A DNA stretch of 64,000 bases, from contig BCGN01000009.1 of the NCBI GenBank assembly GCA_001599295.1, forward strand, positions 186,001 to 250,000. The letters are read 5' to 3'. Positions within the stretch are counted from its first letter, which is position 1, and each line of letters begins with the position of its first letter. The translations under genes and the position numbers were made by a program. The notes beneath the pieces are model-generated. The model ran no database searches. It saw only the letters and a program-made list of their open reading frames with translations, and was not told the DNA's origin. This document shows, piece after piece, positions 20,207 to 64,000 of the stretch. Source of the stretch: Sporopachydermia quercuum (Eukaryota).

Positions 20207-21653
20207 GCTGTACCCTTCGTTAAAACTTCGTCTGTATTGAGATTGAAGGATAAGTCATCAATCAAAGAGCTACCCTTGATTACACTGCTCCAAAGAAAAG
20301 TAAGAGGAAAAAGATATAATATAGACGACTATATGAGGTTTGCTTCTCACGAATAGAATCACAATCGCAATCGATCGATCAGCTTCAATCTCGTGATGCG
20401 TTTACAAACTCCCATTCGAAAAAAACAGCGTCGTGTTTGCTTCATGGCCGTCCGGATTGGTAATAATTTGATTCTGACATTTTGTGTTCGGACATTGTAC
20501 TTTATAGGACACTTGACTCGGACAAAATTTACACTATCTGCATTCTAACCAATAAAGGTTTCATCTCGGGACAATGTTGTATGTCCGACACAGATGATTA
20601 AATTCATCTGCGCGGCGAGCAGGAAATCGGAAAAGATAAAGGAAGAGAATAATCGGAGAACATAAAGTCACGCGATCTAAATAACCTCCGAAATTCTTTC
20701 AGCCGAGGTCACCATAATAAATGANAATGGAATCGGTAACTGAGCAAGCAAGCGTCACACACCATTGAACATGCTGTTTGGATGTTAAATACCCAAACAA
20801 TAAGTGATTTTTTTTTTTCATTCAGGGGTATTACCTTTACTTCACAATAGACATGATTATTATCGGATACTCAAAAAGTACTAGATCCCTTTCTTCCCTT
20901 TCTAACTGCACGCTCACATGCCAATTCTCATCACCTGGAACTTCGGTATATTTTTCAGGCTCTTTCCCAGGTAAGTATCATGTCAGTTCCCTATCTCTGA
21001 TCTATTAGAGGCATAATTATCTAGCTCCCACAAATAGACTAATATTTCTTTACATATAAACGTCCTATTCAAAGAAAGATCTCTCATTTTCAAGTTTTTC
21101 CCTCATTTTCCTTCCTATAAAAATGCCTTTATTGTTGTAATCTACGGTTTCTCCTTCAGTCTCTCCGACTTCCCCTAACGAGATGTGGAGAAAATGTATG
21201 TGATTCCTGTCAGTACATTTATTTTATACTTAAGATTACTCCAAAATCCTAAAATCCTAAAAACCTATAAATAATAGGAATCCCCGCGTTTGCTGTTGTA
21301 TCGAAGTGATGATTATCAACTGCTATTTATTATATACAATAGAAGAGCATCTAGCAAATATAAATAACTGCTGGAAATATGATGTATCTGGCTTTATTGT
21401 CCTGAGAAACATTTGTTGACAACAGAAGCATTTTGGTAATTTTATGTAAGTATCAGTAAATGTGCAATGAGGGTGAATAGGTGCTAGGTAGACCAATTGA
21501 TGGCTACACTGTATTGACAATCAGGTGGGCTCTATCCTCGTTGCATATAAAAGTATCAAGAGTTGATAAATCAGCAAGAAGCCGTATTTTCTAACTAGAT
21601 AGTATAGTTTACAACGGCGAGCAGAGTTAAGCTTATTGGAACATTCACTCACA

Positions 21654-27017: not shown

Positions 27018-28540
27018 CCTTATCCTAGGTGAACTTAAGTTTAGGCGTAAGAGATAGTGTGCTATAGCTACAGCAACAGGCAGTTAGTTGAATCTTTCTG
27101 TAGTTGTTAATATCAGATAAGCAAATAAATACTAAAAGCTGCTACGTTACTTTTTGATGGTGAAGTAACATTACTTGATAGAAACCACTGAACTAGCCTA
27201 TAAAATAAAATAATTGTTGTGGAGCTTGTTGTAAAGTTGTGTTTCCTCTAAGAAAACAATGTACCAGCAAGACCTGTCAGGTTTGGGCTTTTGGAACCAA
27301 TTGTTTGTATTAAAAGCTGGTATGACGATTGTACACCAGAATTGTAGCTGATTGCCTATCAGATATAGGCTCTCCACAAGAGACCAACAGAACCTGGACG
27401 GTGAAAATCAGTTCAGTAAAGTTGATACGAAAGACAAAATCTGCTGAATAGTTTCTGAATACAAATGCTTCTTTTCTGTTTTAATAAACTTGCAGGCAAG
27501 AGCTGGAACTGTCTCCTGTTGTACGCTATACTCAATTAATGAAGGGAAGCAGTAGATTCCAGCGTCAGACGCGTGTGGAAGATAACATACGTAGAACAAA
27601 NTGGTGGAGGTATTTAGTAAAACACACACAGAATGAGATAACTAGAGACAAGCACCGTTTGATCTACAATATAATTATTGGCTATAAGATGTATAATCTG
27701 TCAGTAGATCGTTCATTGTTGGTGTTGGTCTAAGAATAAAGATGAAACATTGGGAAAGTAACACACACAAAAGAACAAAAGCAAAATGTTATTTGATGAG
27801 GCAAAACATGTGAAATAAGGTTTACGGATTATGCATGTTAATACGTCAAGGAAAAAGTTTAATTGAGTATAAGAAATGGAATGGAGAGAGGTTAGTTGTG
27901 ATTTAGAGGCAGAATTCTTTTGATAGAGAAAAAAAGGGAAATTAGGTCTTTGACATATTTGAGAGTCAATGATAGCATTGGTACTTTGGTCGGTTCCATT
28001 AGATGGAAATGACAAAGTATCAGGGAAGATAATAGGGATGATAAACCTAGATAAGGTTTGTGAAATTACGAAATCTATGCAGCTACTAGCCTAAAGCTAA
28101 TAAGTTTAAATTGTTAGGTAAAATGCTCCTAGTAGCAGCAGAGAAGCAAAGATATATGCAATGTGAACACTTTATGTATGGGTTTGAGTATCAAGGTACC
28201 AAAACTTTCTATTGAAACAAAATGGTGCAAAAATAGTTCTCAAGAGCTCGGCATTTGCTTTCCACGCAAAAAGAAATAAGGTTAAGGAGGCTAATATGTA
28301 TTACCTATTACGTTATTAAGGTTTCCTACAATTTTTATCTGCATAATCGTGCACCAATTATAAACTTTATACGACATTCAATTATACTCGAAAATACTGA
28401 AAATTCTCATAGATATAAACCAGAAATACTTCAATTCTTTCTTATATACTCAATTGCAGTTTAGCAACATTGAATCAGCAGAATACAGTATACTTTGCCG
28501 ATCTTTGAGCTCATACTGATTAACTAACACGCTCTCCCAA

Positions 28541-29458
28541 TCAAAGTTTCTCATCATTCTCAACAAGCAACTCGGTAACCTGATCAACTCCCGGATACTC
28601 AGGCACATCAAATCCCCATTTACCGGCTAATTTCTTAGTGACAAATCGACCACCTAAAAAGTGCCGTCCCATAGTGAAAAAACTGGCTGCTGGTTTTGGA
28701 GCTGTTAGACTTACTAACACATCTGGGGTAAATGTCTCATCAGGATTTATTTGTTCCGGGCCGGAGTCTACATCCCATCCTGATGGAATGTCGACGGAGG
28801 TAATTGGAATTTTGGAGATAGTAGACGTTGATATTTTATTCAATAGCCCAATTATCTTATCGAAAGGTTCCCTGACTGGTGGATGAAATGAAAAGCCGAA
28901 CAGCGCATCAATGATTTGTAGATCGGGTTTACTCTGCTGTGAAGCTAACTCCACTTTTTGCTGAACTTCTTCAAAAGTTTCAATGAACGGAATATCAAAT
29001 TGATGTAATTGAGTCTGCAAGTTAGTAAACAAAGTACCTTTAGTTTTTTTCGGGTAGAAAACTGAAGGTGAGTAACCAAACAATTTCAGATGTCTAGCTG
29101 CTACTAGTCCATCCCCACCATTATTACCTGGACCAACCAGGACTAAAATATTCTGGTTTGTTGTAGGTGGATACGACTTATAAACAGCTTGAGCAACAGA
29201 CAACCCAGCGAGTTCCATCTACCAATTTGTGTTAGCGGTGAATACTTCCTTTATCCTATAAATCTTGTATATAGGTAAATGCTGAGTAAATGCTGTTTAC
29301 ATACTAATTGATCTAATGAGAATCCTTGAGTCGACATGAGCTCTTTATCCAGGGCAGCAGCAGCAGCAGCAGATAGAAACTGAAGATGTCGTTAGAACCC
29401 CAAACGAGAAACTAAAAGCACCGGAAGAAAAATTTAATCATACTTTTGCTTTGCTCAT
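28541..29458 (-). CDS. NNR1: NAD(P)HX epimerase (YjeF N-terminal family); exons 29458-29444, 29379-29305, 29218-28541
   Basis: Spliced MSKAK|FLSAAAAAALDKELMSTQGFSLDQL|MELAGLSVAQAV, with motifs GPGNNGGDGLVAARHL, DALFGFSF, SVDIPSGW and VSLTAPK. Two phase-0 introns. Confidence 0.93.
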
Positions 29459-42046: not shown

Positions 42047-44199
42047 TTAACGTTGTTGCTGTTGCTGCTGTTGTTGCTGTTGGAGAAAAGCCATAAACAT
42101 TTGCTGGTTGATTCCTCCATTCTGCATACTATTTTGCATAGCCTGTAAAGCATTGAGATCAAAAGCAGGCTGTTGCTGTTGTTGTTGCGAGAGCGGGGGA
42201 ACTTGCTGTTGCTGCATTAATGGCACCTGTTGAGGGGGTGGACCTGTATTGAACATTTGTCCTAATGAATTAGGAGTAGGAGGTAACCCATTGTTATTGG
42301 TTGCCCATGGAACGTTCATTCTATCGTTGTTTCCCAATGGTAAAGCATTTGAGCTACTGCCCATACGTTCTCCAGAATCCCGGTCTCTTCCGTACCTACC
42401 TCCACCATTACTAGGTCTATTATCACTTTCATTCAATCTTGATAAACCTTTAATTACCTGGGTTGGCATATGTTTACTCATAGCTTTAGATGAGATACCA
42501 GCGCCAATTTCAATGTCAGGTTCTTCCACAACGATCCCTGGAACCAGGGGCTTTCCGCCAGTTCCACCCCATTCAGCTGTTTGGATCCATCGTTTATCAG
42601 CCTCAGTAAGTGATTTGATAGGAATCACACTGATACCAGCATCATAATTATAACATTCTCTTGGACCAAAACCAACGGCCCATCTTGAACGAAGACCCAA
42701 TCCCCTTGATTTGGCATAAGTCTCGAAATTGTTCTTTACTGCTTCTGCTTCGGCACGAGAATACACTTTGACAAAAGCATGTCTCCTTTCACTATTGAGG
42801 ATCACGCTCTGTACAGCAGCAAATGGCTTGAGATATTCGGCTAATTGTCTTTCATCAGTTCTATTAGGAATACCACCTACAAATACAGTTCTACTAAGAA
42901 CCTTCACACAATCTTCAGCTAAATCTGGATCGTACGAAACGTTGATAGGCCTGTAATGAGGATTAGATGGTTCGTTACTCTCGGCACCAGCTAGGTTAAC
43001 CCTGGTAGGAGGTTCCCTATTTTGACGAGATGAAGGTGATCTGGATCTTCTCCTACCACCCATATTATTATTACGTCTATTGTTACCATAATTGTTGTAA
43101 TCGCGATCTCTGTTAGGTGATCTGGATCTATTACGACCATAAGACTCGTAGCCATTTCTTCTCTCATCTCTGAAGCCATTGTTGGGCTGTTGAAAACTGT
43201 TATTGTTGTTGTAATTGTTGTAGTTATTACGGTTGTTGTTGTCATTCACAGGAGCATTGTTATTGTTATTAGGTTTATTTTGAGCCAACAACATTTGAAC
43301 CATGGCCAATTGTTGAGAAGGATCCGTTGGAACTGGAGCAGAAGCATCGTCGCTGGATGATGTTAAACCAGGTAAGGGCGCACCAGTCGAAGGAAGAGCT
43401 GGCACACCGGCGGGGTTAGAACTACTAGGAACATCACCGTTAGTTGTACTTGAGCTTGCTAAAGACGAAAGAGCTTTTAAAATAGAAGCGGGATCTTTAG
43501 CTACAGTATCCGAAGACGTAGCATTTGTAAGATTGGTATTACTTGTTACAGGAGCATTAGAAGTATTACTAGTAGCAGTAGTTGATGAAAAAGATTTCAA
43601 AACAGAACTTGGTGGTGATCCCTTAGGAGTAGTGGATTCACCTGCAGTAGAAAGATACTTTGCACGGAAAAATTCAATTTCCTTGTGATCAAAGGTTCCC
43701 GCTCGATCCCAAATGTCAAATAGTTTCTTTAGTTTTTCCTTCACCTCATTGATTTCAGGAATAGAGAAAATATCTTCCATCAAACTACCAATAACACCTC
43801 TGATATGATTTACACCTCCAGCGAAAGTGCCGTCTGGTGCATTCTCGTTGATTACTTCACCTCTCTTATTTGCTTCGTCTTGATACTTTCTTACAATAGA
43901 ATCAACAACATATATCACTCCTAGCTTCATGGGGCCGGAAGTTCCTTTGGCATGAGTATACAATTTCTGGACGAATACGGATTCAGACTACAATCATAAG
44001 TTAGTTAGTTACCTATAATAAAAAGAAATTAAGGGTGAAAGAATAGTCATATTCAGTTGATTGAAAGAAAAATTTATTATACCTTAACGTTATCAATGGC
44101 TATTTGAGTCAGTTTCTTTATTCTTGATCCTGAAACACCATGAGGTTTTACATTTTGAAGTTGAGACAACAAAGTGACAAATTCTTCAATAACAGACAT
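42047..44199 (-). CDS. NRD1: RNA-binding transcription termination factor Nrd1 (CID, RRM, Q-rich tail); exons 44199-44083, 43987-42047
   Basis: GVSGSRIKKLT and KLGVIYVVDSIVR (CID), KVLSRTVFVGG, RHAFVKVYSRAEAE and RWAVGFGPREC (RRM), and a polyQ C-terminus. The intron is GTATAA..AACTAAC..TAG. Confidence 0.94.
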
Positions 44200-44716
44200 C
44201 TTGTTCAAATGTAAAAACTTAGTTTTATTTTCTGATACAAAAAAAAAGGTTTGTTACTGTAATAAAAAATTACTCTTCGCTTTGTTTTGCTTTACAGTAT
44301 AGTACTGTTTACACCAGTCGAATGAGCTGATTGTACCGAATTGAGATAAATGAACTCAATACAAATTCCCCAATAGTATATAGTATACCAAGTTGAGTCT
44401 AATACGATTGGTTAAAATTTACTGCTGCTTTGTTACTTCTACAATTGAAATACAATAATTCAAAGCAACAAATGATTTTTGGTGAAAAATGCTTTCTACT
44501 TTGAGGAGCTCACCAGAATACTTCGAAATACAATTACAAAGCTTGACTACCCGGTTATTTTACTCAATCAGTTAGTAGACGGATACTTAAATATTTGACT
44601 GTGGGCTTGCTGATCTTCTTGTTAGTTTTATTGACTTCCGAACAAGCAACAAACGTAAGAAGAATGAAATTTTACTTTGAGGGGCGGATTGGCTGGTTTA
44701 TATATGAGAATGATGG

Positions 44717-44724
44717 CCGGGTAA
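44717..44724 (-). promoter_or_regulatory. Reb1-type site TTACCCGG upstream of NRD1 and downstream of CRS1
   Basis: CCGGGTAA on the + strand is an exact match to the Reb1 consensus. Confidence 0.5.
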
Positions 44725-45174
44725 CTTTGTCGTAATTTTCTTCGGGGAAATTCATGTGGCATTATATTGATTACGTGAACATACTAAATCTTGAAGAGTC
44801 ATCTGATTATGTAATACTATAATATTGCGATTGAATGATTACGTGATGGAGAAACATCAAATGTAGAGCCTTGATTGTCCTCGGCTTCGCCGATGAAAGA
44901 ACTGGCCTGTTTTAACCCGTCTGCAATATAATATGCCTTGAAAGTTAAGTAAATGTGTATTGTATTTCTAGATGATGATTATTACATGACTTTCTATCCA
45001 GAAAAGGTTGAAATATCTTTTCTCTCTTGTCCATACAAAGTACTCATTTCTCATGTCGTCTTCTTTTTGATTACAGAACTCTGTACAATAGAGGAAAATT
45101 AACAACACAACGAAAAAAAGGGAGACATTGAGTTTACAGCATATAATCTACAACCAACATCATCATAGAATGAT

Positions 45175-48097
45175 CTATTGGTTGTATTTCTCATACAGTT
45201 TCTTTTGCTGTTCGAATAACTTTAAAAACTTCTTCTTCTGAGATTTGGAGACTGGATTGCCTTCTATATCGACAGAAGGAATTCCTTGATCATCAAACTC
45301 TTTATATTGACCCTTAATTTCTTCAGTTTGGAACATTTCCTCTGGTTTAATCTTGGCCTTCTCTTGAATTTGTCTCTCTTTCTTTAATTTTGCTTCAGCC
45401 AATTGAGCTTTCCTTACCTCATCTTGCTCATTTTGCTTTTTCTTAGCTTCGAGTTCAGACAGCAGCTTATCCTTCTCAGTTGCATCCAAAAACTTAATGG
45501 ATGCTGGTTCACTTGGTGTGCCATCACCAAGAGCAACACCGAGATTGAGAAGGTCAAAATCTCTTACTAAATCAGAAGCTGACAAGAAATCACTGTAAGG
45601 GGCTTTACCAATAGCTGATTTTCTGACCTTGTCTCTGTACCTAGCTAAGGCTTCAATATAAGGACGGGCAATTTCTTCTGCATCACCAGAACCGCTTTGT
45701 GATTGTTTTTCATCCGCCCAACCGAGTCCGTCTGGCCTAACAAGGAATCCCATAACTGAAAGAATGTGGTTTATCCATCTAGTAATCTTTTCTAGTACTT
45801 GTAATCCTGGATCATCCTGTTTGACAGCCAAATATGAGTAAACATGAGACACGAGGTTACTTAATTCTCTGAGAACTACAGGAGTGGAAAGGTTGTCACA
45901 GAATGCGTCATCAACGACTTTGACAGTAGCATCAAACTTATCAAACAATTCAGCTTCAGCTTTTGAAAACTTGAACTGAGCTTTTGCGTCCTCAACCTTT
46001 GTATCGTATAGTATAGACCTCATGTTGGTAAAGAACTTAGAGATTCTTGATTCGTATGATTTCACTTCTGTAAGTAGACTTTCTTTGAAATCCATACCGC
46101 TATGCCATTGTTGCAGAGCAAATGATAAACGCAACTGTCTAGCAGTGTATCTCTGTAAAGCTTCTTGAATAGTGATAAAATTCTTCAAACTCTTACTCAT
46201 TTTTTGTCCTTCAATATGAAGATGACCTGTATGGAGGAAATAGTTGACCCAGTCATGACATCCATGGAAAGCTTCTGATTGAGCTACTTCGTTATCATGA
46301 TGAGGGAATGCCAAATCAATTCCACCTGAATGGATATCCATATGGGCTCCCAAAACACAAGAAGCCATGACTGAGCATTCAATATGCCAACCAGGACGTC
46401 CTTCTCCCCATGGAGACTCCCAAGCAGGTTCACCAGGTTTACTCCCTTTCCATAGAGCAAAATCGTTCTTGGATTTCTTACCTGTCCCCAAAGTCAATGA
46501 GCCTTCACCCTCATTTATCAAATCTTCTTTTCCTTTATTCCAAGGTTGCAATTTAGCATAGTTGAAACCTTGTGATTCGAAAGCTCCAGTATCAAAATAC
46601 ACTGAACCATCAGTAGTGGCGTAGGCAAGCTTTTTATCAACTATGATCTTAACAAAATCAACAATCTCAGGCATATATTGAGAGACTCTTGTAACGACGT
46701 CTGGTGGTAAGACATTAAGAGCTTTCATGTCTTCGTTGAATTTGTTTTCCCAGTAGGCTGGCAATGATCTGAAAATGGCAGGATCTTTCACAGTAGAACT
46801 CAATTTGGCGTCCAAAACAGGGACCCAAATGTCCTTTATAGCTTCGTAGAAAGTTTCAGAATCAATACTATCAAGAGATGCAGTAGCTGATTCAATTCCC
46901 TTGGCGGCATCTCTGGCTGCTGCTAGATGCATACTAAACTTCGGATTCACCACAACTTGAGCAGCAGTATCAACACTAGTAGCCCAGGCTTCAAATGATG
47001 ATATATCCACTGGTTGAGGGACTCCATGAAGGGAAAGGTTCTTCGCAATATATTCTTTCCAAGCCTCAGTTACATCGTTCAGGATTTCTGATGTAACTGT
47101 TTTGTTTCCAGCTTTGAACTGGTCAAACAGGTACAGTTGACGTGCTCTAATGATGATTTTATCGTCGATATCAGTAACATTTTGAACGAATTTTACTTGA
47201 AATCCAAAATAATCCTGTAAAATTCTTCTGTTGATGTCGATTGATACGTAGTTCCGGGCATGGCCCATATGACTTGCATCGTATACAGTAGGACCACAAG
47301 AGTACCAGGTGACAAAGCCTTCTTCTCTTGGTTTGAACGGGACTTTTTCGTGAGAAAAAGTGTTGAAGAGCTTGAGTTTTTCCTGCGATGGCATTGCTGA
47401 GTAGCTGATTTGTCTTTTGCTTTGCAAAGAGGGCAAATGAGAAATCCTTCCTTTAAGATGGTTAGTAAATTAGTGACAAGAGTGTATGGTTGTAATGATA
47501 ATGAATAAGTAAGGATAGCCTTCCGATGTTTGTTGTAGTACCTAATAAAGTTCGCAGTTGATAAAATGAGTTGAATTCTCTTATTATTAAGTTCTGAATG
47601 ATTTGCAAAAGATCAAATATATATTGAGCCCAAATTAGTAATGCTACCAGTAACAAAATAACGGCAATCACCACAGTAAGACATATTGTTTTAGTGAGAG
47701 TAATTTCATGACGAGGTCTGAACATAAACGAAGTGAAAGAGCACGCCGTTTGATTGATTAGTTCTGGGATCTAATTGACAGCTTTGTTGTTGCATATTTC
47801 TTCCGCAAATATTCATGCTTTAATATATCTAGTGATATATAGAAATCTGCGTTCAGTTCTATTCTTCATTCATTCATTAATTCACTCATGGTGTTGTACA
47901 GCGTCATATTACTGTCAAACTGAAACTCTTTCTTGCCGTAAAGCACAGCCAAATTCCCTTACAATTCGTCTGATTTCTGCTCAGATTCACATTCTTGACA
48001 ACCATACTGTACGAACCATTACTATAACACAACCTCACTCGTAGCTGCTCATCGTTTATCAGAAGATGTACTTACTGAAGTTACGAAAACTTCTCAT
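45175..48097 (-). CDS. CRS1: Cysteinyl-tRNA synthetase; cytosolic form from ATG 47394, predicted mitochondrial form with exons 48097-48076 and 47450-45175
   Basis: WYSCGPTVYDASHMGHAR (HIGH), GRPGWHIECS, HSGGIDLAFPHHDNE and KMSKS. The upstream micro-exon is inferred from splice signals and is less certain than the enzyme call. Confidence 0.93.
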
Positions 48098-49084
48098 AAA
48101 TGACCAAATATAAGTAAAGGATCCAACGAAGGTTTTTATGTAAAAACTAAGCAATCAAGCTGTTGAACCTGTAACTTATAGATGACTGTTGTTGTAGCCT
48201 TTGATGTAGAATAAACGATGAAAAGGTAGCAAGGGAAGAAGGGGAAGATGATTGTGACCACTTTTGCTTCACCTTTGTAATTGTTGAGATGCGCTTTTGA
48301 AATTTTCATAGCGGAGACAAAAGGTATTGTAATTTCCGGTCAGTACACTATTNATTGATTCCAGAATGGTCACGTGTCATTTAGATTATTTCCGGAATTT
48401 ATAGTATAGAGGAGAAATTGATTGAAATAAAAGTATCTGAATTCCAAGCAAAAGAAGTTAACCAAGGAGAGAAAACAAGTTGATATGATTAGCACTGTGT
48501 TTTAGAACTATTCCTTAACGTTTTATTGAAATGAAACGTTCCTTTCTATGATATTACTTGTTCTGATCTTCAGAGAATTCTACTAGGATGAAAAATTTGG
48601 AGATAATACTTGGGATCTCAGTTCATGACTTGATCTCTGTCTTGAGATGTGGAAACCAGTTTTTTTTTTTTTGAGTATATATGGCTTTGCATTATAAATC
48701 TTTGAAACCGAATACGAACATTCAAACATTTAAGCTACATTTATAATAGCTTTCTCTCAATAGTACTTTGAAAAGTCATGGACTTATACACAACCCCTTC
48801 GCCATCTATGTCGTATAAGAGGAATATCTGCAGACATACGCCCTAAGCTTCAGACATAATCTCCGGCATTTCTGTCCCATCCCTTTCTTCTTATCGCCTT
48901 TCTCTTCTTTTGATCATTCTCACTTTTTATTCTTACTCAATTGATCATCAAAATACCAGGTCCACCTTTACTGAATCACTGGGAACCTGCCGCTGAATCA
49001 ATTGGGACTGCGGAACACACCAGTGGAGTGACTGGTTAATTGCTATCCGTGCGTTGTTCGTATTCTGCCTATTCTCATCCTCAA

Positions 49085-52000
49085 ATGTCCCAAATTACAA
49101 AACTATCTATCCAAGGCATTCGGTCATTTGATCCAGAGCGTAGGGAAACTATAGCTTTTGGTGTTCCATTAACTTTGATAGTCGGTCAAAATGGATCCGG
49201 GAAAACTGTATGTTAGACCTTAAAGTTTTCTTTCTCCTCGATTTTTTTCTTCTTTATTGTTCTCTGTATTTGGTTACTATTCTCATACTAACCACACTAT
49301 TAGACANTTATTGAATGCTTGAAATACTCGACTACTGGAGACTTACCACCGAATTCAAAAGGAGGAGCTTTTGTTCATGATCCGAAAATTACAGGCGATA
49401 AAGATGTGAAAGCTCAAGTTAAACTTGCTTTCAAGAACATTAATGGTGTGCAGATGATTTGCTCTCGCTCTATGCAGCTTACTATGAAGAAGACAACACA
49501 GACATTCAAAACTCTGGAGGGTCAACTCCTAGCAATGAACCACGGAGAGCGTACGACTGTTAGTAGCAGAATCTCCGAATTAGATGCTCAAATTCCGTTA
49601 TATCTCGGAGTATCTAAAGCTGTGCTTGACTATGTCATCTTCTGCCATCAGGAAGATAGTCTATGGCCATTAGCAGAGCCTTCTGTTCTGAAAAAGAGAT
49701 TTGATGAAATATTTGAAGCTTTGAAGTTCACGAAAGCTCTGGAAAGTATCAAAAACATCCGGAAAGAGCTATCAACAGATTTGAAGCTCTTAGGTCAGTC
49801 AGTAGGACACTGTAAGATAGAGAAAGACAGAGCAAAGAAAACCGAGGAGAAGAAACAACAACTGGAAGAGGAAATATACAAATTTGAAGAGGAAATAGCG
49901 GATACCAAAGTTGCGTTAGACGAAGTAACAGAAGAATCCCGGAAACTGTTTGAAAGTCATCAGTACTTTCGAGACACGCTTACTAAGCTAGAATCATTTC
50001 AACATCGGAAGCAAATGTTGCAAGACCAAGTGGATAAACTCACGTTTACAATTAAGCTTTTAACTGAGCCTGAAGGAGCTTTAGAACGGAAATTAGCTAA
50101 TTTTGGATCAGAATTAAGCGAACGGAAGGCCCAAGTTGAGACGGGTCAATCGGAAATATTGCAGCTGACACAAGCGATAAAAGATCTCCGAAATGAATAC
50201 AATAAAGAGATTGGGAATCTAGAATCCACAAAGGCCAAAATAGACGGGTTCGTTGACTTACAAAAACGCCAAATTGGGCTGATAACGGAAAAGATAGCGG
50301 AGTTGAAGTTGGACATTGAGGAATCGGAAATAGTAAAAGCCCGTAATAACGGANATGATGACAATGATAATTATGAAAACCGGAGAAGATTGGTACAAAG
50401 TTTCCGCGATCAAATAGCTAAACTAAATGATCGAATAAATATGGAAAGAAGTCAGCAGTTGAGCCGAACAACCGAAAGCTTAAACTCAAAACGGGAGCAA
50501 TTGCGCAAGATACAAGCAGAAAAAGACGGAAAGTTCCAAAGGAGGGAATTACTTTTAGAGCAGATTTCCGCTTTCGACTCCGAATTACAGTCCTTAAAAG
50601 GGGAAACGGAAACTATAACGGTAGACGAGAATGATTTAGTATATTTAGAAACCGAATTAGAGGATTTGAAAGGAAAAGCGAAAAAGATTGATGAGGAGTT
50701 TGATTCTGCAGGATTATCGACTAAAATCACCCAATTAGGTAAAGAGATTCGAAAATTAGAGAATGAAGCGGAGGATATCGGAACGGAGTTTGCTGAAAGT
50801 AGTAGAGTAACGGAAGCAAGAGTCAAAATAGATTTTATCACCTCCGAACTTAACCTAAAACAGAAAAATGTTTCCTCTCTAGTTGATAAAAACTCCATCA
50901 AGTTCTGCGAAATTACCAAAATACCCCTGAAAGTAGAAACCTGTTCAGAACACCTTCACAATATTCGTTCCGAATGGGAGCAAAAGCTTGAAAACCTACG
51001 CCAATCATACAAAAGCGCTAGCAATGAAGCTTCCGATATCACCCGAGATTATCAATCCACAGTAAACAAACTTTCCGAATTTCAAACCGAACGGGAAAAA
51101 CTCGGGAAGAAGATCCTTAGCTTGCTTGATTCGGAATCAGAATACGAATCTCGGCTTGAAGAATCGGGAGAAAACTTCCGATTGGCTACACAGAATAAAG
51201 AGAATGCCTCATTTACTAAAGCTTATTTCACGTTCTCTATTGATTGTGCCGAGAGCAATAGTAAATGCTTACTATGTAATCGGAAATTTACTTCAGAAGC
51301 GGAAGTGAATAAATTTATATCCGAAATCCGGGGGAAGATCGAACGAGTTGCGGTCACTCCAGAGGAATTAGAAGCGGAATGGAATGAGATTCGAGAAGAG
51401 AAAGAAAGTTTGGTTGATTTGAAGCCTGATATTTCCCATTTTCGGCAATTAGAGCGGACCCTTATTCCTGATTTGGAAAGAGCCATTGTTGATCTGAACT
51501 CAAAGCGAGAATTCTCCGGTACTTTTGCCGAACAGTTATCTAAACAGGTGAATGATGCTAAATTACATGTTGAGGCAATTGAGACCCTGATTAAACCTAT
51601 TCAGGCAATTGATGGGCTAAATAGGGAAATAAATAACTTAAGACGGCAATTGGAACATTTACAAGCAGACGAAAACGGGAAAAGCAACGGGAACTCTAAC
51701 CAAGTTAGGTCGTTGTCGGAACTTCAAGACGCATTAACGGAAAAGAATAATCAGATTAAAAATAAACGACAACTGAGTCTCCAATTAGCCCAACAAAAGG
51801 AGAATCTGCAGAGACAGGTCCACAATATGTCTGCTCAAATTAAGGATAAAGAGTTAGTAATAAGCGAGTTACGTCACAGAATATCTCAAAAGAACCAACT
51901 TAGTGAAACCGTGGCGAGACAGAAGGCCCAGAGAGGAAATTTGCAGACACAAATTGGCGTTTTGGCCGAGGAAATTGAATCATTACTGCCTGACTTGGAA

Positions 52001-53176
52001 AACCTAGAAGTAGAAGTCGAAGAGGCGCAACAAGACTTAGAATTACTTGAAACGGAAAAGAATACTCAATTGGAAACTCTCAGAACGATTCTAAATTCCG
52101 TGGATCAAATAGAATCGGAAGTTCAATCGTTTGACAAAGCGGCTATCGATTCCGCTATTGCTTCAATTTCAGTCAAAACGGATAATATGCAAGCTGTCAT
52201 ATCCGAAAAGGAATCAGAAATAGAATCCATCCGAGAAGTCATCCATACTTCGGAGCAAGAAATAGCCGACTTCACTGGCGTCGAACGGAATATTCGAGAT
52301 AACTTAGAATTAATCAAACTTCGGAAAGAACTTTCTGAAATCCAATCCGAAATCCGGAAACTCGATATTCGAAATGCAGAAGCTCAAAAACTCCGGTACG
52401 AAGAAGAATCTTCCCGTCTACAAGAATTGTATTCCTCATTAACAAAGAAACATGCCGGAAAGCAGGGAGAAGTAAAACAATTGGATGATCAACTAAGAAA
52501 CGTTATTGCTGAGCTGGAAAACGAGTTTTCTAACGCTAATAAACGTTACCAACAAGAATACATCAAGCTTACTACTAAAACCAAAGCATTTGATGATTTA
52601 GCAAAATATAGTAAAGCTCTGGATAAAGCAATCATGCAGTTCCATTCTATGAAAATGAAGGAAATCAATGATATCGTTGATGAGCTATGGAAAAAGACAT
52701 ATTCCGGTACTGATGTTGATACTATTCTTATTAGATCTGATGCTAATAATGCTAATAGTAACAGTACTAGTACAACCAGCAATAGATCGTATAATTATAG
52801 AGTCTGTATGGTCAAACAAGATGTCGAGCTTGATATGAGAGGAAGATGCTCAGCTGGGCAGAAAGTTCTAGCATCTATTATAATTCGGTTGGCGCTAGCG
52901 GAATGCTTTGGCATCAATTGCGGTATGATAGCATTAGATGAACCGACGACTAATTTGGATGCCGAGAACATAGAATCTTTGGCTAAGAGTTTGGGAGCGA
53001 TCATTGAATTGAGACAAGCGCAGAAAAACTTCCAGTTGATAGTTATTACCCACGATGAACATTTTCTGTCTTTTATGAATGCAGCAGCGTATACGGATCA
53101 TTTCTACAGGGTCAGTCGTAATGAGAGACAAAAGAGTGAGATTGAGTTAGTAGCTATTTCGAAGGTAAGTGCTTGA
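49085..53176 (+). CDS. RAD50: MRX complex SMC-like ATPase Rad50; exons 49085-49207, 49304-53176
   Basis: [15 protein letters not shown] start; Walker [10 protein letters not shown] split by a GTATGT..TACTAAC..TAG intron; Q-loop [12 protein letters not shown]; zinc hook CLLC; signature CSAGQ; Walker B/D-loop [12 protein letters not shown]-loop ITHD. Confidence 0.97.
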
Positions 53177-55021
53177 GTTGAAAGATTATCGGTAGCAAGA
53201 GATGAATGGAGAATTGTGAAGATTGAATCTGAGTAGATGGATCAGGAAGACTGAGGGCTCACCGGACTGGAAGAACATTTGGTGCTGGAGAAGCAAGCAC
53301 TTTTCAAGATATTACATTGGTTCTAGAGGTTGGATATTAGTTCCGAAATTTGATCTTTTCGGGTTTAAATACCTTTCTTTTACTTTCTACTGCGGTTAGG
53401 TTTGTCATAGGGAAGGAGTTGTTGCTTGTATCTAGGAATAATAATGTGATTTTATCTAAATTATAAATGCGCCAATTCTAGATTTTTCTTGTAAATTTGA
53501 ATGTGTTTGTTCATGAAATAACTGACTCTCAGTAGTAATGTCTCAGGTTTGCTAATATAATTCCTGCAGGTTCTGCCGCAGAAAATTCTTTCTGAACTTA
53601 GAGTTGAGATTAGTGCATATTGCTGCTTACTGAAGGTACTTATTTCACCTCAAGTTTTGATCCATCTTATAAGCTTATCATCGGAGAATACTAAATAGTC
53701 TTTAAATAAATCCTACTTTGGACCAAAGTCTCATCTATACTAACACTTCCCATCGAAATCAATAAATATACTTCCTGCATCTATCCTGTGTCTATCCTGC
53801 ATAATCATGATCACAAACCCTAAATTAGAATTGTTCTTATTCCCTTTCCCAAACAGGCAAAACCTAACACATATAGTTCTTCTTCTGGAAGATTGTCTCT
53901 CCTGACAACTAAATCTTTCATGCAATCTCTTTAGAAATACCAACCAAGATGTCAAAATCTGCCCTCAAAAATGGATTGAACTACTGCGTTACTGATCGCA
54001 TTTTTGGCTGATCTTCCGCTGGTTTACTATTTTTCACCGTGAAGTTTGTAAATCTCTTTTGGTTCAATCCATATACCGAAGCATGTGATTCTGCAAGTTT
54101 GTGTAGGAGCCCTGTTTGTTTACAGTTGCAACTTTGAATTTGCTCTTGTTCTATTGTTTATTGCTATTGCTTTTGTACTTGAAGTAGTGTTTAATGAAAC
54201 GAATTGATATGATAACTAATGTATAGAGTAGACTGGAGACGATCAGATATAATTGTTTGAATTCAGTATTTTTGTTGTATTACTGAATTTATAAATATTA
54301 GTATAGGAAGAAGGAAACTGATGGTATGTATAGTGATTTGATTCCTTGTATGGTATGGACCGACAAGTGCTATCAGTTTATTGCTATTGAAAAGATGTCG
54401 TTGTTGTATACAAGAGCTGGCTACTTATCAGTTGATTGTGAATAATCGTTGGTACATTGAATTGTATGGATGGTCAATGGACCATTGATTCAGATCAAGC
54501 ATACTACATGGCCTAATAACCTACTCACAATATCTTGCGATGAAGCAATCGGAAAAAAATCATTTTGTAACAATTCTATAAGTTTAATTACTTTTGGATA
54601 AATTGGTGAATTGTAGATAAAAGATTNATTTGTCTTTTTATATCCAATTTTTCTTTTATACTTCCCTTCTCTTAGCCATTGGAAGAGAGAAGCGGCCGCT
54701 TTCTGTATCAAGTGACCATCAACTGATGAGCAAACGTTAACAGCTTTTATTGTACTGCTATTAGTGATACTGGAAAGATAGCAGAAAAAGAGAAGAAGAT
54801 CTAGCAGCAAGAACAATAGCAGTAAGAATAAAAGTGAGAGAATTTGCTGATTGTTACAATTTTCAAATGCTTTTTTTTGCCTGATTGATGGGTCCGACTG
54901 GAAGTTGTAAATGCTCCTATGTCAATTAGTTATTTCTGAGTATTCTTATACTAACGTTTCACCAGCTAAGTAGAGAAAATAATCAGAAGCATAGTAGTAG
55001 CTCAGATCCATTGAAATAAAG

Positions 55022-57724
55022 ATGAAGCTCAAAATACCGAAATTCGGGAAACAGAACTCGCATTCTCATGATGGGCATTCCGAAAAACAAAAACGGAACA
55101 TTCCAGACTCCAGTACTGAACCCAAAACTTCGGAAAAGTCGAAACAAGTAGTCAAAGAAACCCATCCAGTTGCGTCACCTACTCAAGCTTCTAGTCCCTC
55201 AGTCGACACATTATCAGAAGAGGTATCAGCTTTAGAATTTACGGAATCGGAAGAAAGCTCCGATGGAAACTCTACTCGGTTGGAAATGGATTCTGAAACT
55301 GAGACTGAAACAGAAATAGAAAATGACAGAATCAGTGGCGGGAGAAAATTGAATACTCCAGATGGAGCAGCTCTTGATTCTGAGTTATTGTCACCAATCA
55401 TTAGTATCAAGACCAATAAAAGCAGCAATATTGATGATCTAGAACGAATAAAGGCGGAGTCTATTATTGGTGGGTCTATTTATTCCGGCTCTGGAAACGA
55501 AATCCAAGATAATTACGAATTAGATACACCTGCGGGTTTCACTGATTCTAAGATCATTTCCCGTCCCAATGATGATACAACGGAAGCATTGGAGCCCGCG
55601 GAACCTTCTAAAAAGGTTTTTGAAAGCTCCGTTCCTAGTAAATCTAAACATACGGGAACTAAAAGCCAACGAATCTTCCAATTCTCTTTACCCTTGGCGC
55701 CGTTATCAAGTATTTCACCTTCCATTCCCACAATTCGCAGTTTTTCTAATTTGGGTAAATTTTTTGGTAATTCGGAAGACGAGCAGATCCGAGAAACAAT
55801 AAAACAGAAGCTCAAGCGCCAAGAATCAATGACATCTTTGGAAGAAGAACTTCTCTACTCAAATGTTCGGAATCAAGATAACGGAAGATTTCGGGCCGTC
55901 AAGAAGGCTTTCCTGTCCAAGCTTGAGTCATTACAAGCTATCCCACTGCCTACCATCGAGCTCTCTAGCTCTGATGCTCTGCGCATAAAAGAAACCACCA
56001 TCGCAGAACCATTTCCAGGACTATCCGGTGATATAGTGATTCTTGGCGGATACCGAGGTTCCATTCTTCGAAATAAAAGTACAGGCAAGCGGGTTTGGAT
56101 CCCTTTGAAAGCCGGTTTGAATCTACGAAAAATTGACCTGTTTGTTGGTTTGAAGGATGATGATGAATATGAAATGGAAGATTATATCTATCCATCAGGA
56201 ATGTTGACCCATATTGGACCAGTGGATATATCGAAGAGGTTGATCCGAAAGTTGGAGAAAAACGGGAAGACTCGGGTTCGGGATTTCGGGTATGATTGGA
56301 GGTTGTCCTGTGATATTAATAGTGAGAAGCTTATTAAATTCTTAAAAAATCTTCCGTGTAATAAACGGAGTGAAGGCAATAATGGTAGCAAACCTAAGGG
56401 AGCTATAGTAATTGCTCATAGTATGGGAGGACTAGTTGCACATCATGCAGTTCAAACAAATCCCGAACTATTCCGAGGTATCATTTATGTCGGTTCGCCA
56501 TCAAGCTGTCCTAATATATTAGGNCCATTAAGAGATGGTGATAGTATTATGCTGTCAACTAAGATACTTACCCCAGAGGTTAACTTTTCAATGAGAAGCT
56601 CTTTTGTATTCTTACCACTTGATGGGAAGTGTTTTGTTGATAGAAAGACAGGGAAAAGGTATGACATAGATTTTTTTGATGTTAAGAATTGGATTGAGTA
56701 TGGATTGAGTCCAGTTGTTGATATGAAGAGGAAAGAGAAGTTATTAAGGAGTGAAAAGGAAAGCGAAAAGCAGAAAATTAATAATGGTGATGCTGGTGAT
56801 AGTATAGCTAGTAGTATAGCTAGTACTGCGACAGTATCCACTGTTGTTTCTGACGGCAATCCTGATTCTAACGGCAGTGTTACTGTTACTGTTGATGCCA
56901 CTTCAAGTACCTTAGAAGCATCTAGTTTTAATAGAACTAATGGTAATATGACTGCTACCACTACTACTAGTACCACTACCACTTCTACTACTGTTTCTAC
57001 TGCCCCTACAATTACGACTAGTTCTCCAAAACAACATAATCGAACTTCTTCCGCCACTGTGGCTCCTCCTATTAGTACATCTTCATCATCAGATCATAGA
57101 AAGCTTCTCAACTTTGCATCTCGCAAGGGATCTTTGTCTTCTAATAATTCATCATCATCCATTTCTGGTTGTACTAAATCAACAAAACAATCAGAATCCT
57201 TACTGCAACAGTCGACATCTTTCATTAAATCATTGAACAATAATATCAGCATCACCAACATCAGTATTAATATACCAAATCCTCTAGAAGTAGACAGAGA
57301 GATTCCTTACGATGAAGCTGTCGAGTATCTTGATAGAACTCTTAAAAGAACAAAGAAGTTCTCACAGGAATTACGATNTAATGAAGAGAGAAAGGATCAA
57401 TATCCACCCATGGCTGTTATCTATGGGAATGATGTGCCAACATTAAGAGGAGCAAGAATAGATGGAATCCAGGGGTTATATGATGGTGATTATTCGGACT
57501 TTATATTCGCTCCGGGAGATGGTGTTGTGTATCATAGAACATTAATGCCTGAAGGTGCTGGTTTTGGCAAATGGGATGGAAACGGAGAGAATGGCAGTAA
57601 TCCAAGGGGTAAGATAGTTGCTAAAGTAGCAAGTAAAGAAGGACATATTGGATTATTGACGGATATAAGTGCTTTCCAAGTGGCTATTTCCAAACTGTTG
57701 GCAGCTGAAAAGTATGTTAAGTAA
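55022..57724 (+). CDS. Putative alpha/beta-hydrolase (LCAT/lipase-like), YJR098C-like
   Basis: IVILGGYRGSILR, RVWIP, FGYDWRLS, nucleophile elbow AHSMGG, GDGVV and GHIGLL, plus S/T-rich insertions. Convergent with JJJ3, like the S. cerevisiae YJR097W/YJR098C pair. Confidence 0.8.
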   Translation: MKLKIPKFGKQNSHSHDGHSEKQKRNIPDSSTEPKTSEKSKQVVKETHPVASPTQASSPSVDTLSEEVSALEFTESEESSDGNSTRLEMDSETETETEIENDRISGGRKLNTPDGAALDSELLSPIISIKTNKSSNIDDLERIKAESIIGGSIYSGSGNEIQDNYELDTPAGFTDSKIISRPNDDTTEALEPAEPSKKVFESSVPSKSKHTGTKSQRIFQFSLPLAPLSSISPSIPTIRSFSNLGKFFGNSEDEQIRETIKQKLKRQESMTSLEEELLYSNVRNQDNGRFRAVKKAFLSKLESLQAIPLPTIELSSSDALRIKETTIAEPFPGLSGDIVILGGYRGSILRNKSTGKRVWIPLKAGLNLRKIDLFVGLKDDDEYEMEDYIYPSGMLTHIGPVDISKRLIRKLEKNGKTRVRDFGYDWRLSCDINSEKLIKFLKNLPCNKRSEGNNGSKPKGAIVIAHSMGGLVAHHAVQTNPELFRGIIYVGSPSSCPNILXPLRDGDSIMLSTKILTPEVNFSMRSSFVFLPLDGKCFVDRKTGKRYDIDFFDVKNWIEYGLSPVVDMKRKEKLLRSEKESEKQKINNGDAGDSIASSIASTATVSTVVSDGNPDSNGSVTVTVDATSSTLEASSFNRTNGNMTATTTTSTTTTSTTVSTAPTITTSSPKQHNRTSSATVAPPISTSSSSDHRKLLNFASRKGSLSSNNSSSSISGCTKSTKQSESLLQQSTSFIKSLNNNISITNISINIPNPLEVDREIPYDEAVEYLDRTLKRTKKFSQELRXNEERKDQYPPMAVIYGNDVPTLRGARIDGIQGLYDGDYSDFIFAPGDGVVYHRTLMPEGAGFGKWDGNGENGSNPRGKIVAKVASKEGHIGLLTDISAFQVAISKLLAAEKYVK

Positions 57725-59703
57725 TGATCGCGAGAAATGTTATCAGCATTACTTTTGATATTGATAATGGTGTCTAGGTTTTTTTTGAGTGAAGGTGAAA
57801 ACTCATCGTGTTTACAAACTCATAGTGGTATCGGCGCAAGCTGATGTTCGGAGGAAAGTTCCTTCAATTCTCTGATGAACGTTTTCTGCAGCTGAAATCA
57901 TCATAAAACCTACAATGGGAAGATTAGNATATAACGACGAAGAATCCATTGAATTGGAAATGTGCATTACTTTTGCTACTTTTGCCGCTGCCGGAATTGG
58001 TATTATAACCAAGCATCGGAAGTTTCTGTAGATGCTGTCAAATTGAACTGCAATAGCTGGAAGGAGAAAGTNTCCTTTTCGAAGTTTAGGTATATATATA
58101 TACTGGGATAGTTACTCGCAGGGGTTTTCCCTTCCATGTTTTTTCGGGGCAAATTAATATTTGTAAGATAATATGATAATATGGGCAATATAAATAATGC
58201 CACGATATATTCATGAATTCACAATTCACAGTTAATAGTTATTAATAATTAATAATTAATATGGGAACTGCTTCTTCTATTTCTCCTTATTGATTTTCAT
58301 AAAAACAATAGTGTAAGTAGAGAAATATTAGAGGTAGTTTTGGTGTTGGTGTTAGTTATTGGATATAAATAAGTTGAGAGAAATGGTGATTGGTATTGAA
58401 TGTGTATGTAGGTATAGAAGAAGAACAGGTAAATGTTCTCATTGGAATACACCACATGTTACTATGAAAGCAAGAATCAGAAGGTTGGAAGTAGGTTTTT
58501 ATGATAAAGCTGCAAATTATGATAAATCAGACTCCTTATAATACCACGCAATAGAGCCGTACTAAATCAGGAACATCAGCAGCGTAGCGTACCATACGAT
58601 GATGCATCATAGAAACATTATATCATACTTCAACCATGCTTCGTTATCTCATGGTAAAGCAAGCTATAATAACCAAACAGTCAGGTCAATTGCAATTCCT
58701 AGAAATTACAGAGCATTTCCTATTCATTTAAAACTGCATCATTTAGGACTATCTATCTATCTGCCCTTTGGTTCTGCATTATCTTCACATCTCGCTTTCA
58801 TTTACGTAGTAACACTCACTTTATCTCCAATCGCTTTCATCATTAATAGTATCAATATCATCAATACCATTTATAGCAATACTGCTATCGTGGATAATGA
58901 CATATCATACATATGAAAAGAAAACAAGCAACAAAAAGAACGTACCATTGACAGTGATACTGTTACTACCATTATGATACGGCTGAAATAATAGTCCTGT
59001 TGATACTGACACCACTGATGGTAATTCTGCTACTGGACTGGCAATTTGATAACTTTCTCCAGGTGCTTCCTTCATTCACTTTCATATACTCATGTCTTCT
59101 TGTTAGTTATCAAACACATCAATTCGCTCATACTCATGGTGATGCTACAACCGAGTTCGCTGACATGGGATTCACAAGACAACAATATGAGTGAAAATTC
59201 AGACAGTTTATGGCAAAAAGAAAACCAGCAGGCTCCTTATCTCTAAAAGCTCTGGTAGGCTGTATGAACCCCACCAAAAGAAGTCTTACTGTAGAGCTAC
59301 CACTGCTTTATGCTTACTTTTTGAAACAGTACATCTACTTCGTTTAAACTATATCATAAACTAGTTAGAAGATATCATAATTTATTATCATCCAGTAAAT
59401 AAGAAGCAGCACCTTATTTGTTTCGTCCTGTTGGATTTAACAGTATAGGAAGCCCGTCATCAACTCTTATGTAGGAACACCAAAGCAATATACTGGAATC
59501 CTATATTTCACCAGCTTCCATGAATAACTAATGCAAGGTTGCTAAGAGTGAAGGCTCAATATCCCGAGATTATCTCAATTATTTGATCTATGACCTTATG
59601 TCTTATGACCTGTTGTTTGGATCTATGATCTCTTTAATAGCAATAAGAGTGCAGTTAATGTTTCTTCGTTTCTAGTTTCTTGACGCACAAATCCTCCTAA
59701 CTA

Positions 59704-60240
59704 TCATGTCACCTCTCCTTCTTCCTGAAAAAGAATCATTAACCATAAACTACAAGTTGAACACTGCACAGCTACTTCACCAGTTGCACTATGCTCAGAC
59801 AATTCATTCTCAGTAACAGAAAAAGCTTTCTTAACTTTACAACGAGGACAATCTTTACACCAAATATATTCATTTTCAAGGGAATCTTCATTTTCATTTG
59901 TAAACAGTTCTTCCATAAAATCACTTAGATCAACTGTATCCATACCATGGAGAACTATGTCATTGGTTCCTNTTTCCTCGTCATACCGCTTCTTGTATTC
60001 TTCATTATAGAGTACCTCAAACGCGTTCTGGATCAGTTGGACACTTTTATTAGATTCTGATCGACTTTCCCTGATGTTTGGCGATTTTTCCTCTAATTTA
60101 TTATGCTGGTGCTGTTGTTGCTGTTGTTTGTCTGGATGATGGAGTAGGAGAGCCCGCCTGTAGGCTTGTTTGATATCCTGTTTCGTCGGATTATCCAATT
60201 GTTCAAGACCTAAAACTTGGTAGAAATCAAGGGGGACCAT
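59704..60240 (-). CDS. JJJ3: Diphthamide biosynthesis J-protein Jjj3/Dph4
   Basis: J domain (DFYQVLGL, IKQAYRRALLLHHPDK) plus a CSL zinc finger (DCPRC...QCSTCSLW). Confidence 0.92.
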   Translation of the reverse strand: MVPLDFYQVLGLEQLDNPTKQDIKQAYRRALLLHHPDKQQQQQHQHNKLEEKSPNIRESRSESNKSVQLIQNAFEVLYNEEYKKRYDEEXGTNDIVLHGMDTVDLSDFMEELFTNENEDSLENEYIWCKDCPRCKVKKAFSVTENELSEHSATGEVAVQCSTCSLWLMILFQEEGEVT

Positions 60241-60597
60241 TGTTTTATAGAAACATGATTTTTTGGTGTTAATTCAGTTGTGATAATTCGGTTTTCTGAC
60301 CCCTTGTTGATGGTGATACCACCTACAGAGAAGATTGATTATCTTGGCCGATGAATAGGATTTCTAATTGTGACAGCGAAAATAATTGTCCACAAAATAT
60401 CATTGCAAGTACAACAAATACTACACAAATATATCGTAGTACAATAACGTAGAGAAGTAATCGCAAATATATCAAATTACTCAAATTTTTTTTTTTGCGA
60501 AACATTTATTAACTACAGCAATCTCCGTCACTCTGCACAGCACAATCCACAAAATTATCTTTACTATGAGGGTATCGTAGGGGGTGATTTCGAAGAC

Positions 60598-60609
60598 TGA
60601 AAATTTTCA
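60598..60609. promoter_or_regulatory. Palindromic RRPE element in the divergent JJJ3/RPA49 promoter
   Basis: TGAAAATTTTCA, with a second AAAAAATTTT near 60677. Both flanking genes are ribosome-biogenesis or translation related. Confidence 0.6.
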
Positions 60610-63744: not shown

Positions 63745-64000
63745 ATGTCTGGATCGCCCCAAAACTCAGCACTCCTTTCATCAGTCCCCACTCCCTTATC
63801 GTTCATCCCGTCAAAAGCCTCCGACAAACTACACAACGACTCAAAAAGTAAGCGCTATATCACTGCAATCGAGAGAGCCTTAACATTATTTGATGCTGTG
63901 GAAGAATGGGCCGACTACATCTCCTTTTTAGGCAAACTACTAAAGGCTTTGCGCCAACATACGGACCATTGGATTCCTTCCGATAATTTGGTTTCAGCTA
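63745..64000 (+). CDS. DOP1: Dopey family protein Dop1, 5' part only (runs off the window end)
   Basis: Open frame MSGSPQ...KRYITAIERALTLFDAVEEWADYISFLGKLLKAL matches the Dopey N-terminal signature. Not in the ORF track. Confidence 0.9.
   Translation, partial: MSGSPQNSALLSSVPTPLSFIPSKASDKLHNDSKSKRYITAIERALTLFDAVEEWADYISFLGKLLKALRQHTDHWIPSDNLVSA

Follow-up and report, generated by a model that had tools for sequence, protein, structure and literature searches.

In the yeast Sporopachydermia quercuum, the first 490 codons of a YJR098C-like gene are crowded with CGG and CCG words that stop abruptly in mid-ORF, and fields of the same kind recur in other genes across the genome. The field is real and recurrent, and any function is a predicted one. 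Such fields resemble a so far undescribed signal in DNA, set within coding sequence, that a chromatin-binding protein would read.

Results

The window analysed here is a stretch of 64,000 nucleotides (positions 186001-250000 of contig 9) from a 16.4-Mb genome in 15 contigs. The gene is an ORF of 900 aa (55022..57724, forward strand) whose weak Pfam LCAT/Abhydrolase matches suggest an alpha/beta-hydrolase. Homology searching returned homologues named YJR098C at ~50% identity and a top match at 60%; the named homologues come almost exclusively from budding yeasts. About 60 bp 5' of the ATG, TACTAAC followed by CAG (54949-54965) may mark an intron in the 5'-UTR or first exon.

HMM segmentation places the field at 55001..56500; its last site is at 56491, and both strands carry its consensus, (T)CGG(A)(A). 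The original prediction had named three signature strings in this ORF, all of which were located (at 55037, 55241 and 56261), and had put the sites at about 22 in 55021-55800 against about 3 in 56521-57300. CGG and CCG together number 23 and 3 there, and 44 within 55030-56500 against 8 within 56501-57724. The claim that the signal switches off within one reading frame was borne out by change-point analysis, in which a step appears at ~56492 with a score reached in 0 of 3000 homogeneous simulations, the gene having been chosen after the fact. With an expectation built from synonymous codon use in background genes, which accounts for the amino-acid sequence, 44 sites are observed for 15.7 expected to the left of the step, and 8 for 12.5 in the field-free 3' part (56494..57724, forward strand). 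Chance and amino-acid composition were rejected as sources of the field by synonymous-codon simulations.

The step lies within the conserved hydrolase domain, 5' of a poorly aligned Ser/Thr/Asn-rich insertion (~56732-57301, aa 571-760, delimited by homologue occupancy). Within the well-aligned domain parts, to which the comparison was limited, arginine codons (CGN:AGR) change from 9:2 in codons 331-490 to 1:12 in codons 491-570 plus 761-900 (Fisher P=0.0005). Because arginine codons flip in the conserved domain too, the insertion does not explain the switch. A misassembly at the edge is unlikely, since contigs from three runs (which may be where this DNA comes from) extend over 44100-60600 without a break and with 0 differing letters; among these runs no strain variation was found over that interval.

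The same signature had been claimed for the unrelated RAD50 gene upstream (49085..53176, forward strand; read from the sequence and its Pfam SbcC/RAD50 motifs, with a frame at 49304-53176 and a single GTATGT...TACTAAC...TAG intron at 49208-49303). There the claim is confirmed: an HMM segment at 49001..52500 covers most of the gene, and the ORF carries 98 CGG/CCG sites for 26.0 expected. CGGAA/TTCCG has 48 occurrences in the 4,981 bp of the two lobes and 31 in 28,964 bp taken from other ORFs, and the top enriched hexamer is TCGGAA/TTCCGA (17-fold). A bipartite domain around the intergenic region (53177..55021) was not upheld. That region, which has no long ORF and in which no special centre was found, is a dip (14 four-mers for 12.4 expected from composition) resembling those between other field genes. 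A third, stronger lobe begins at ~63750, past two field-free genes, in DOP1, which was recognised by Pfam Dopey; the start of the gene lies in the window at 63745..64000 on the forward strand, the lobe continues for ~5.5 kb past the window, and the ORF has 228 sites for 61.2 expected. In the window the HMM calls field segments at 49001-52500, at 55001-56500, from 63751 on and, over a short stretch, at 20251-20750, the only one called of three small CGG/CCG peaks (the others at 28501-29000 and 44501-45000).

To define how the words are written, 7,426 field codons were compared with 69,572 background codons. CGG rises among arginine codons from 0.05 to 0.29 and CCG among proline codons from 0.09 to 0.24. 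Choices that complete a word across a codon junction also shift (TCG before GA, 0.39 in fields vs 0.13; NNC before GG, 0.48 vs 0.21; TCC before G, 0.30 vs 0.08), and NNC before A is unmoved (0.36 vs 0.39). CGG, CGA and CCG codons are all raised. The words are thus made by synonymous choice in three frames and on both strands: sense CGG (3.6) and CCG (3.3) rise alike, with CGT at 1.1 and GCG at 1.2, and junction-spanning and antisense words are up equally. Flanks are selective as well, with T at -1 in 0.45 of field sites (0.30 in background) and A at +3 in 0.49 (0.30), giving T-CGG-A-A as the preferred word. A general rise in GC3 was rejected, as GC3 is unchanged at sites outside CGG words. Gene-specific codon bias fails on the frames, the strands and the mid-ORF switch. 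Since all frames and both strands show the words, the signal is one of DNA and not of ordinary codon usage.

The spacing of the words was also non-random. A pair search found a CGG-N7-CGG direct repeat, with 10-bp spacing, at 55882..55894 (forward), and further 10-bp direct repeats at 56263 (+), 56463 (-), 50769 (+) and 51033 (-). Five of the six 10-bp pairs in the window lie inside the two lobes, and 7 of the 11 12-bp pairs inside the RAD50 lobe. Under a protein-conditioned Markov null, direct repeats are in excess at 10 bp (158 observed, 86 expected) and 12 bp (189, 128), with a deficit of inverted pairs at distances of 5-7 bp (21/43, 28/47 and 8/33). Compared with spacings in the same frame, the 10-bp repeats are in excess in 26 of 37 segments and the 12-bp repeats in 29; tandem repeats were rejected as their source (8 of 162 and 9 of 206). 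Chains of three at 12 bp occur 13 times, compared with 1-6 times for other equal spacings. In the genome as a whole, counts of CGGA pairs are 423 (10 bp), 618 (12 bp) and 193 (13 bp), and 98, 197 and 86 in reversed controls, the 12-bp control being higher because that spacing is in frame. In a held-out set of three genes (11 kb), the 10-bp excess was absent (7 pairs, with 8 and 14 at neighbouring spacings) and 12-bp pairs numbered 32. The excess was modest in an unselected contig-9 subset (28/19 at 10 bp, 40/34 at 12 bp), and the CGG words showed no continuing 10-bp or nucleosome-scale period.

The original prediction would have fallen if such densities were common in this genome. Over 760 kb of contig 9, the HMM called 15 field segments totalling 29,750 bp (3.9%); at ~4% the fields are not unique, and they lie mostly in the bodies of long genes. 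The strong contig-9 fields fall in a formin gene, part of BUD3, RAD50, DOP1 and an actin-related/NuA4/formate-transporter trio. TCSGAA pairs are clustered and number 807 genome-wide, compared with 278 for the reversed control, and triples occur on at least 10 of the 15 contigs. Twenty loci were picked by these pairs, and are therefore biased to strong fields; their genes, named by inference from Pfam domains, include SEN1, INO80, BLM10, CSF1, FMP27, NUP188, APC1, PEX1, SEC3, a KAE1-like gene and a STE11-like gene, and CGG/CCG density drops between genes. Along part of contig 9, CGG/CCG clusters come every 50-200 kb. Contig ends showed no significant enrichment of fields (26 of 58 loci, P=0.28). 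As for the ends of contig 9 itself, bases 1-37 hold slightly over three copies of a telomere-like 11-bp unit, and the final 55 bases resemble a minus-strand 5S rRNA gene.

Among distant loci, a field as a conserved property of RAD50 was rejected. At the 41 of 64 other eukaryotic loci with enough sequence, many of them redundant and all distant (at most 63% protein identity), no field was found, and O/E was 0.10-0.93 compared with 1.89 here. As far as these distant loci show, the trait thus appears to be lineage-restricted.

Within the genome, fields follow gene length. For 204 ORFs from the initial 660 kb of contig 9, they occur in 6 of 11 ORFs of at least 1200 aa and, in descending length classes, in 2/21, 2/51, 1/62 and 0/59 (the last <300 aa). 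In the last 100 kb, none of 25 ORFs has a field, two of them being >1800 aa. Field genes are functionally unrelated and tend to adjoin: among 14 labelled field genes there are 5 adjacent pairs, for 0.69 by length-matched chance (P=0.0002). Relative to composition, CGG/CCG density is ~2.7 in field-gene bodies, 1.1-2.0 in flanking shoulders that reach 900 bp beyond them, and 0.4-0.8 in other genes; intergenic O/E is 1.55 between two field genes (n=4) and 0.61 elsewhere (n=136), and field edges often coincide with ORF ends. Because field genes adjoin, and density is highest in bodies and intermediate in flanks, the signal is regional yet anchored in gene bodies. The original proposal that it reflects chromosomal position and not gene-specific codon usage therefore stands in part. 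The presence of the words in all frames and on both strands speaks against ordinary codon usage, and the mid-ORF switch and the clustering of field genes speak for position; since fields recur genome-wide and track gene bodies and length, gene identity matters besides, and position is not the sole property.

A proxy for codon optimality was computed from sites unable to form CGG. It is uniformly low and narrow in range in field genes (medians 0.467, n=14, and 0.468, n=26), compared with 0.504 in 190 others and 0.490 in 39 long non-field genes (P=0.005). Many long genes of low optimality have no field (17 listed).

With CGG masked, CACAAA, AACYTTA and CACGTG also differ between fields and background. 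All three are avoided in ordinary coding DNA and in fields reach or exceed their expected numbers, CACAAA and AACYTTA doing so on both strands and AACYTTA being ~2-fold enriched; CACAAA and AACYTTA replicate in the 11 kb of held-out genes. CACGTG did not, with 0 occurrences in held-out fields. Upstream regions of this genome are enriched in the words TCACGTG and AACCTTA. CACAAA resembles the Ndt80/Sum1 site, and the genome has one Ndt80-family gene. A general relaxation of word avoidance was unsupported, the 40 most avoided 6-mers having an O/E of 0.88 in fields and, for the second half of the background, 0.81. Purging of poly(A)/termination words was rejected, field and non-field genes being alike.

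Candidate proteins were sought in the genome, which has 72 Zn-cluster matches. Among the 10 long ORFs scanned of these 72, no Zn-cluster protein with a chromatin domain was found. One Zn2Cys6 protein (L160:1860-5462, minus strand) has an N-terminal Cdc14-binding (Cytokin_check_N) domain, and four long Zn2Cys6 factor genes (L047, L154, L156, L158) carry CGG fields themselves. In addition to SET1 and SET2, an ASH1-like methyltransferase with AWS and SET domains is present (L147:2-2983, minus strand; G000:C1, ~1.10 Mb; 994 of 1488 aa read), with ASH1L as its best PDB match (E 2e-44). The family was not found in the yeast-like fungi sampled in PMC9692433. In Neurospora, ASH1 represses poorly transcribed genes in multi-gene domains (PMC6251624). 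Here, the link between ASH1 and the fields is one of co-occurrence alone. The genome also has an Argonaute gene (L150; G000:C4, ~1.04 Mb; Piwi, PAZ, ArgoL1) with one TAG within the Piwi match, either an intron or a lesion.

Comparison with known systems

The fields fail a defining test of each known family with which they were compared. The CDEIII core of point centromeres, bound by Cep3, is TTCCGAA, which the top field hexamer resembles; unlike CDEIII, the fields lie inside genes and are many per contig. They are thus not one centromere each, and a CDEI-II-III point centromere was rejected. A Cep3 search gave no match in the genome, the control query being likewise silent everywhere. CpG islands are CpG-rich patches read by CXXC proteins (CpGG). 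The fields are also CpG-rich patches in a CpG-poor genome, but they occupy gene bodies, not promoters, and are CGG-specific; the flat CGT and GCG values reject a CpG island or methylation footprint. No match to C5 DNA methyltransferase (PF00145) was found in the genome, where the control matched in 9 of 14.

The closest geometry is that of Zn2Cys6 proteins. The Aro80 site is CCG-N7-CCG, and its long motif is described as having seven copies in four promoters (PMC1829477). Its UAS shares with the fields CGG half-sites, 10-bp direct repeats and A/T-rich spacer and flanks; the fields differ in being dense kilobase coding arrays of mostly single half-sites, with 12-bp spacing besides. The spacing and orientation of an Aro80/Hap1-type array are thus found, with the 10-bp spacing unseen in the 11-kb held-out set. 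A promoter regulon of such sites was rejected, since density peaks in coding DNA (O/E ~2.7) and is lower in flanks, and the genes are unrelated.

Two systems are alike in logic. C. elegans PATCs are a diffuse gene-body signal that has been proposed to give endogenous genes a licence within repressive chromatin, and consist of non-coding, 10-bp periodic A/T clusters (PMC4947018). The fields consist of CGG words in codons without continuing phasing; by their location and by the period of the CGG words, PATC-like DNA was rejected. In Drosophila, denser GA-repeat sites of one DNA-binding protein, CLAMP, define a domain of coordinated expression (PMC4945028); there, repeats expanded across a sex chromosome, whereas the fields are synonymous point changes in scattered gene clusters.

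A search of the open-access literature found no description of such fields; the text of PMC11540330 on CGG/CCG/CGN deals with CGN avoidance.

Discussion

The CGG words are probably kept by selection for protein binding. Their symmetry between strands, independence of frame, preferred flanks and spacing that depends on orientation suggest a protein that reads double-stranded DNA. The field would then be one of many arrays of 1.5-6 kb, distributed genome-wide, of predicted sites for at least one CGG-recognising protein, most likely of Zn2Cys6 type, set in synonymous positions of gene bodies. Against Zn2Cys6 sites, ordinary intergenic DNA, where such proteins usually act, is not enriched in CGG (O/E 0.61). 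Host genes include ones that are constitutively needed in S. cerevisiae, so a field cannot silence its host. Tentatively, selected arrays may license long, weakly expressed genes through chromatin state: the bound factor would set permissive chromatin, much as PATCs or CLAMP sites are proposed to do, so that long, weakly expressed but needed genes are transcribed to their ends, and arrays together with promoter-type co-words would keep such genes productive. On this reading, the mid-ORF switch at 56.5 kb would mark where such a domain ends. We hold this licensing step about half as firmly as selection for binding. A more speculative extension, and a rather doubtful one, is a second code in which arrays of Zn2Cys6 and co-factor sites would shield essential long-gene clusters from ASH1/H3K36me-type default repression.

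Bound arrays could act differently. They might recruit a repressive or deacetylating activity and block cryptic initiation and stray factor binding in long genes, which we consider unlikely. CACAAA[AT] is purged from coding DNA and tolerated in fields (0.39/0.53 vs 1.17/1.31), and the STE11-like kinase gene, STE11 being a model for cryptic promoters, carries a field. However, the relaxation is not general (0.81 vs 0.88 for the most avoided 6-mers), the enrichment of AACYTTA goes beyond mere tolerance, and cryptic initiation in S. cerevisiae is reported to be independent of gene length and rate (PMC2654109). Almost equally unlikely is a role in chromosome structure (SMC loading or anchoring, meiotic axis or hotspot, replication timing, nuclear position), in which arrays would sit in long genes for the room free of promoters that is available there. 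Multi-gene clusters, mid-gene edges, the graded shoulders and the 50-200 kb recurrence on part of contig 9 are consistent with it, but edges often fall at ORF ends, and fields are many per contig and not enriched at contig ends.

Other explanations dispense with a DNA-binding protein. A functionless footprint of context-dependent mutation or repair that makes or protects CGG is slightly less probable again. It fits the depletion of one-step neighbours (CTG 0.61, TGA 0.68, CAG 0.73) and the CpG-poor background coding DNA, but several mutation types would be needed (arginine AGR to CGN; glycine to GGA after C, 0.55 vs 0.28), and the orientation-specific spacing, the equal GC3 at other sites and the missing C5 methyltransferase match all count against it. 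CGG, CGA and CCG are slow codons in S. cerevisiae, and their rise could point to a translational signal, or CGGAA might pair with TTCCG in the mRNA. Either is very improbable: junction-spanning and antisense words are up equally, folding against synonymous shuffles is no different (-1.0+/-0.45 in fields, -0.54+/-0.37 outside), and 3'-processing words show no further depletion. Least credible is mosaic ancestry, with fields as tracts from a donor genome of other word usage. Sharp mid-gene edges and a distinct set of avoided words would suit it, but sites unable to form CGG have equal composition inside and outside, edges track ORF ends, and shoulders are graded.

Even a neutral origin, if true, would mean an unusual domain-specific mutation process. 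If the words are under selection as binding sites, a dense regulatory code would occupy synonymous positions in a few percent of a yeast genome, one that overturns normal arginine, serine and glycine codon use inside single genes. The sharp edges, as at 56.5 kb, and synonymous recoding make the field directly testable, and in that case it would offer a clean test of whether codon choice is shaped by DNA-binding proteins, a disputed idea. Selection for binding would also point to a fungal chromatin-domain signal encoded in sequence.
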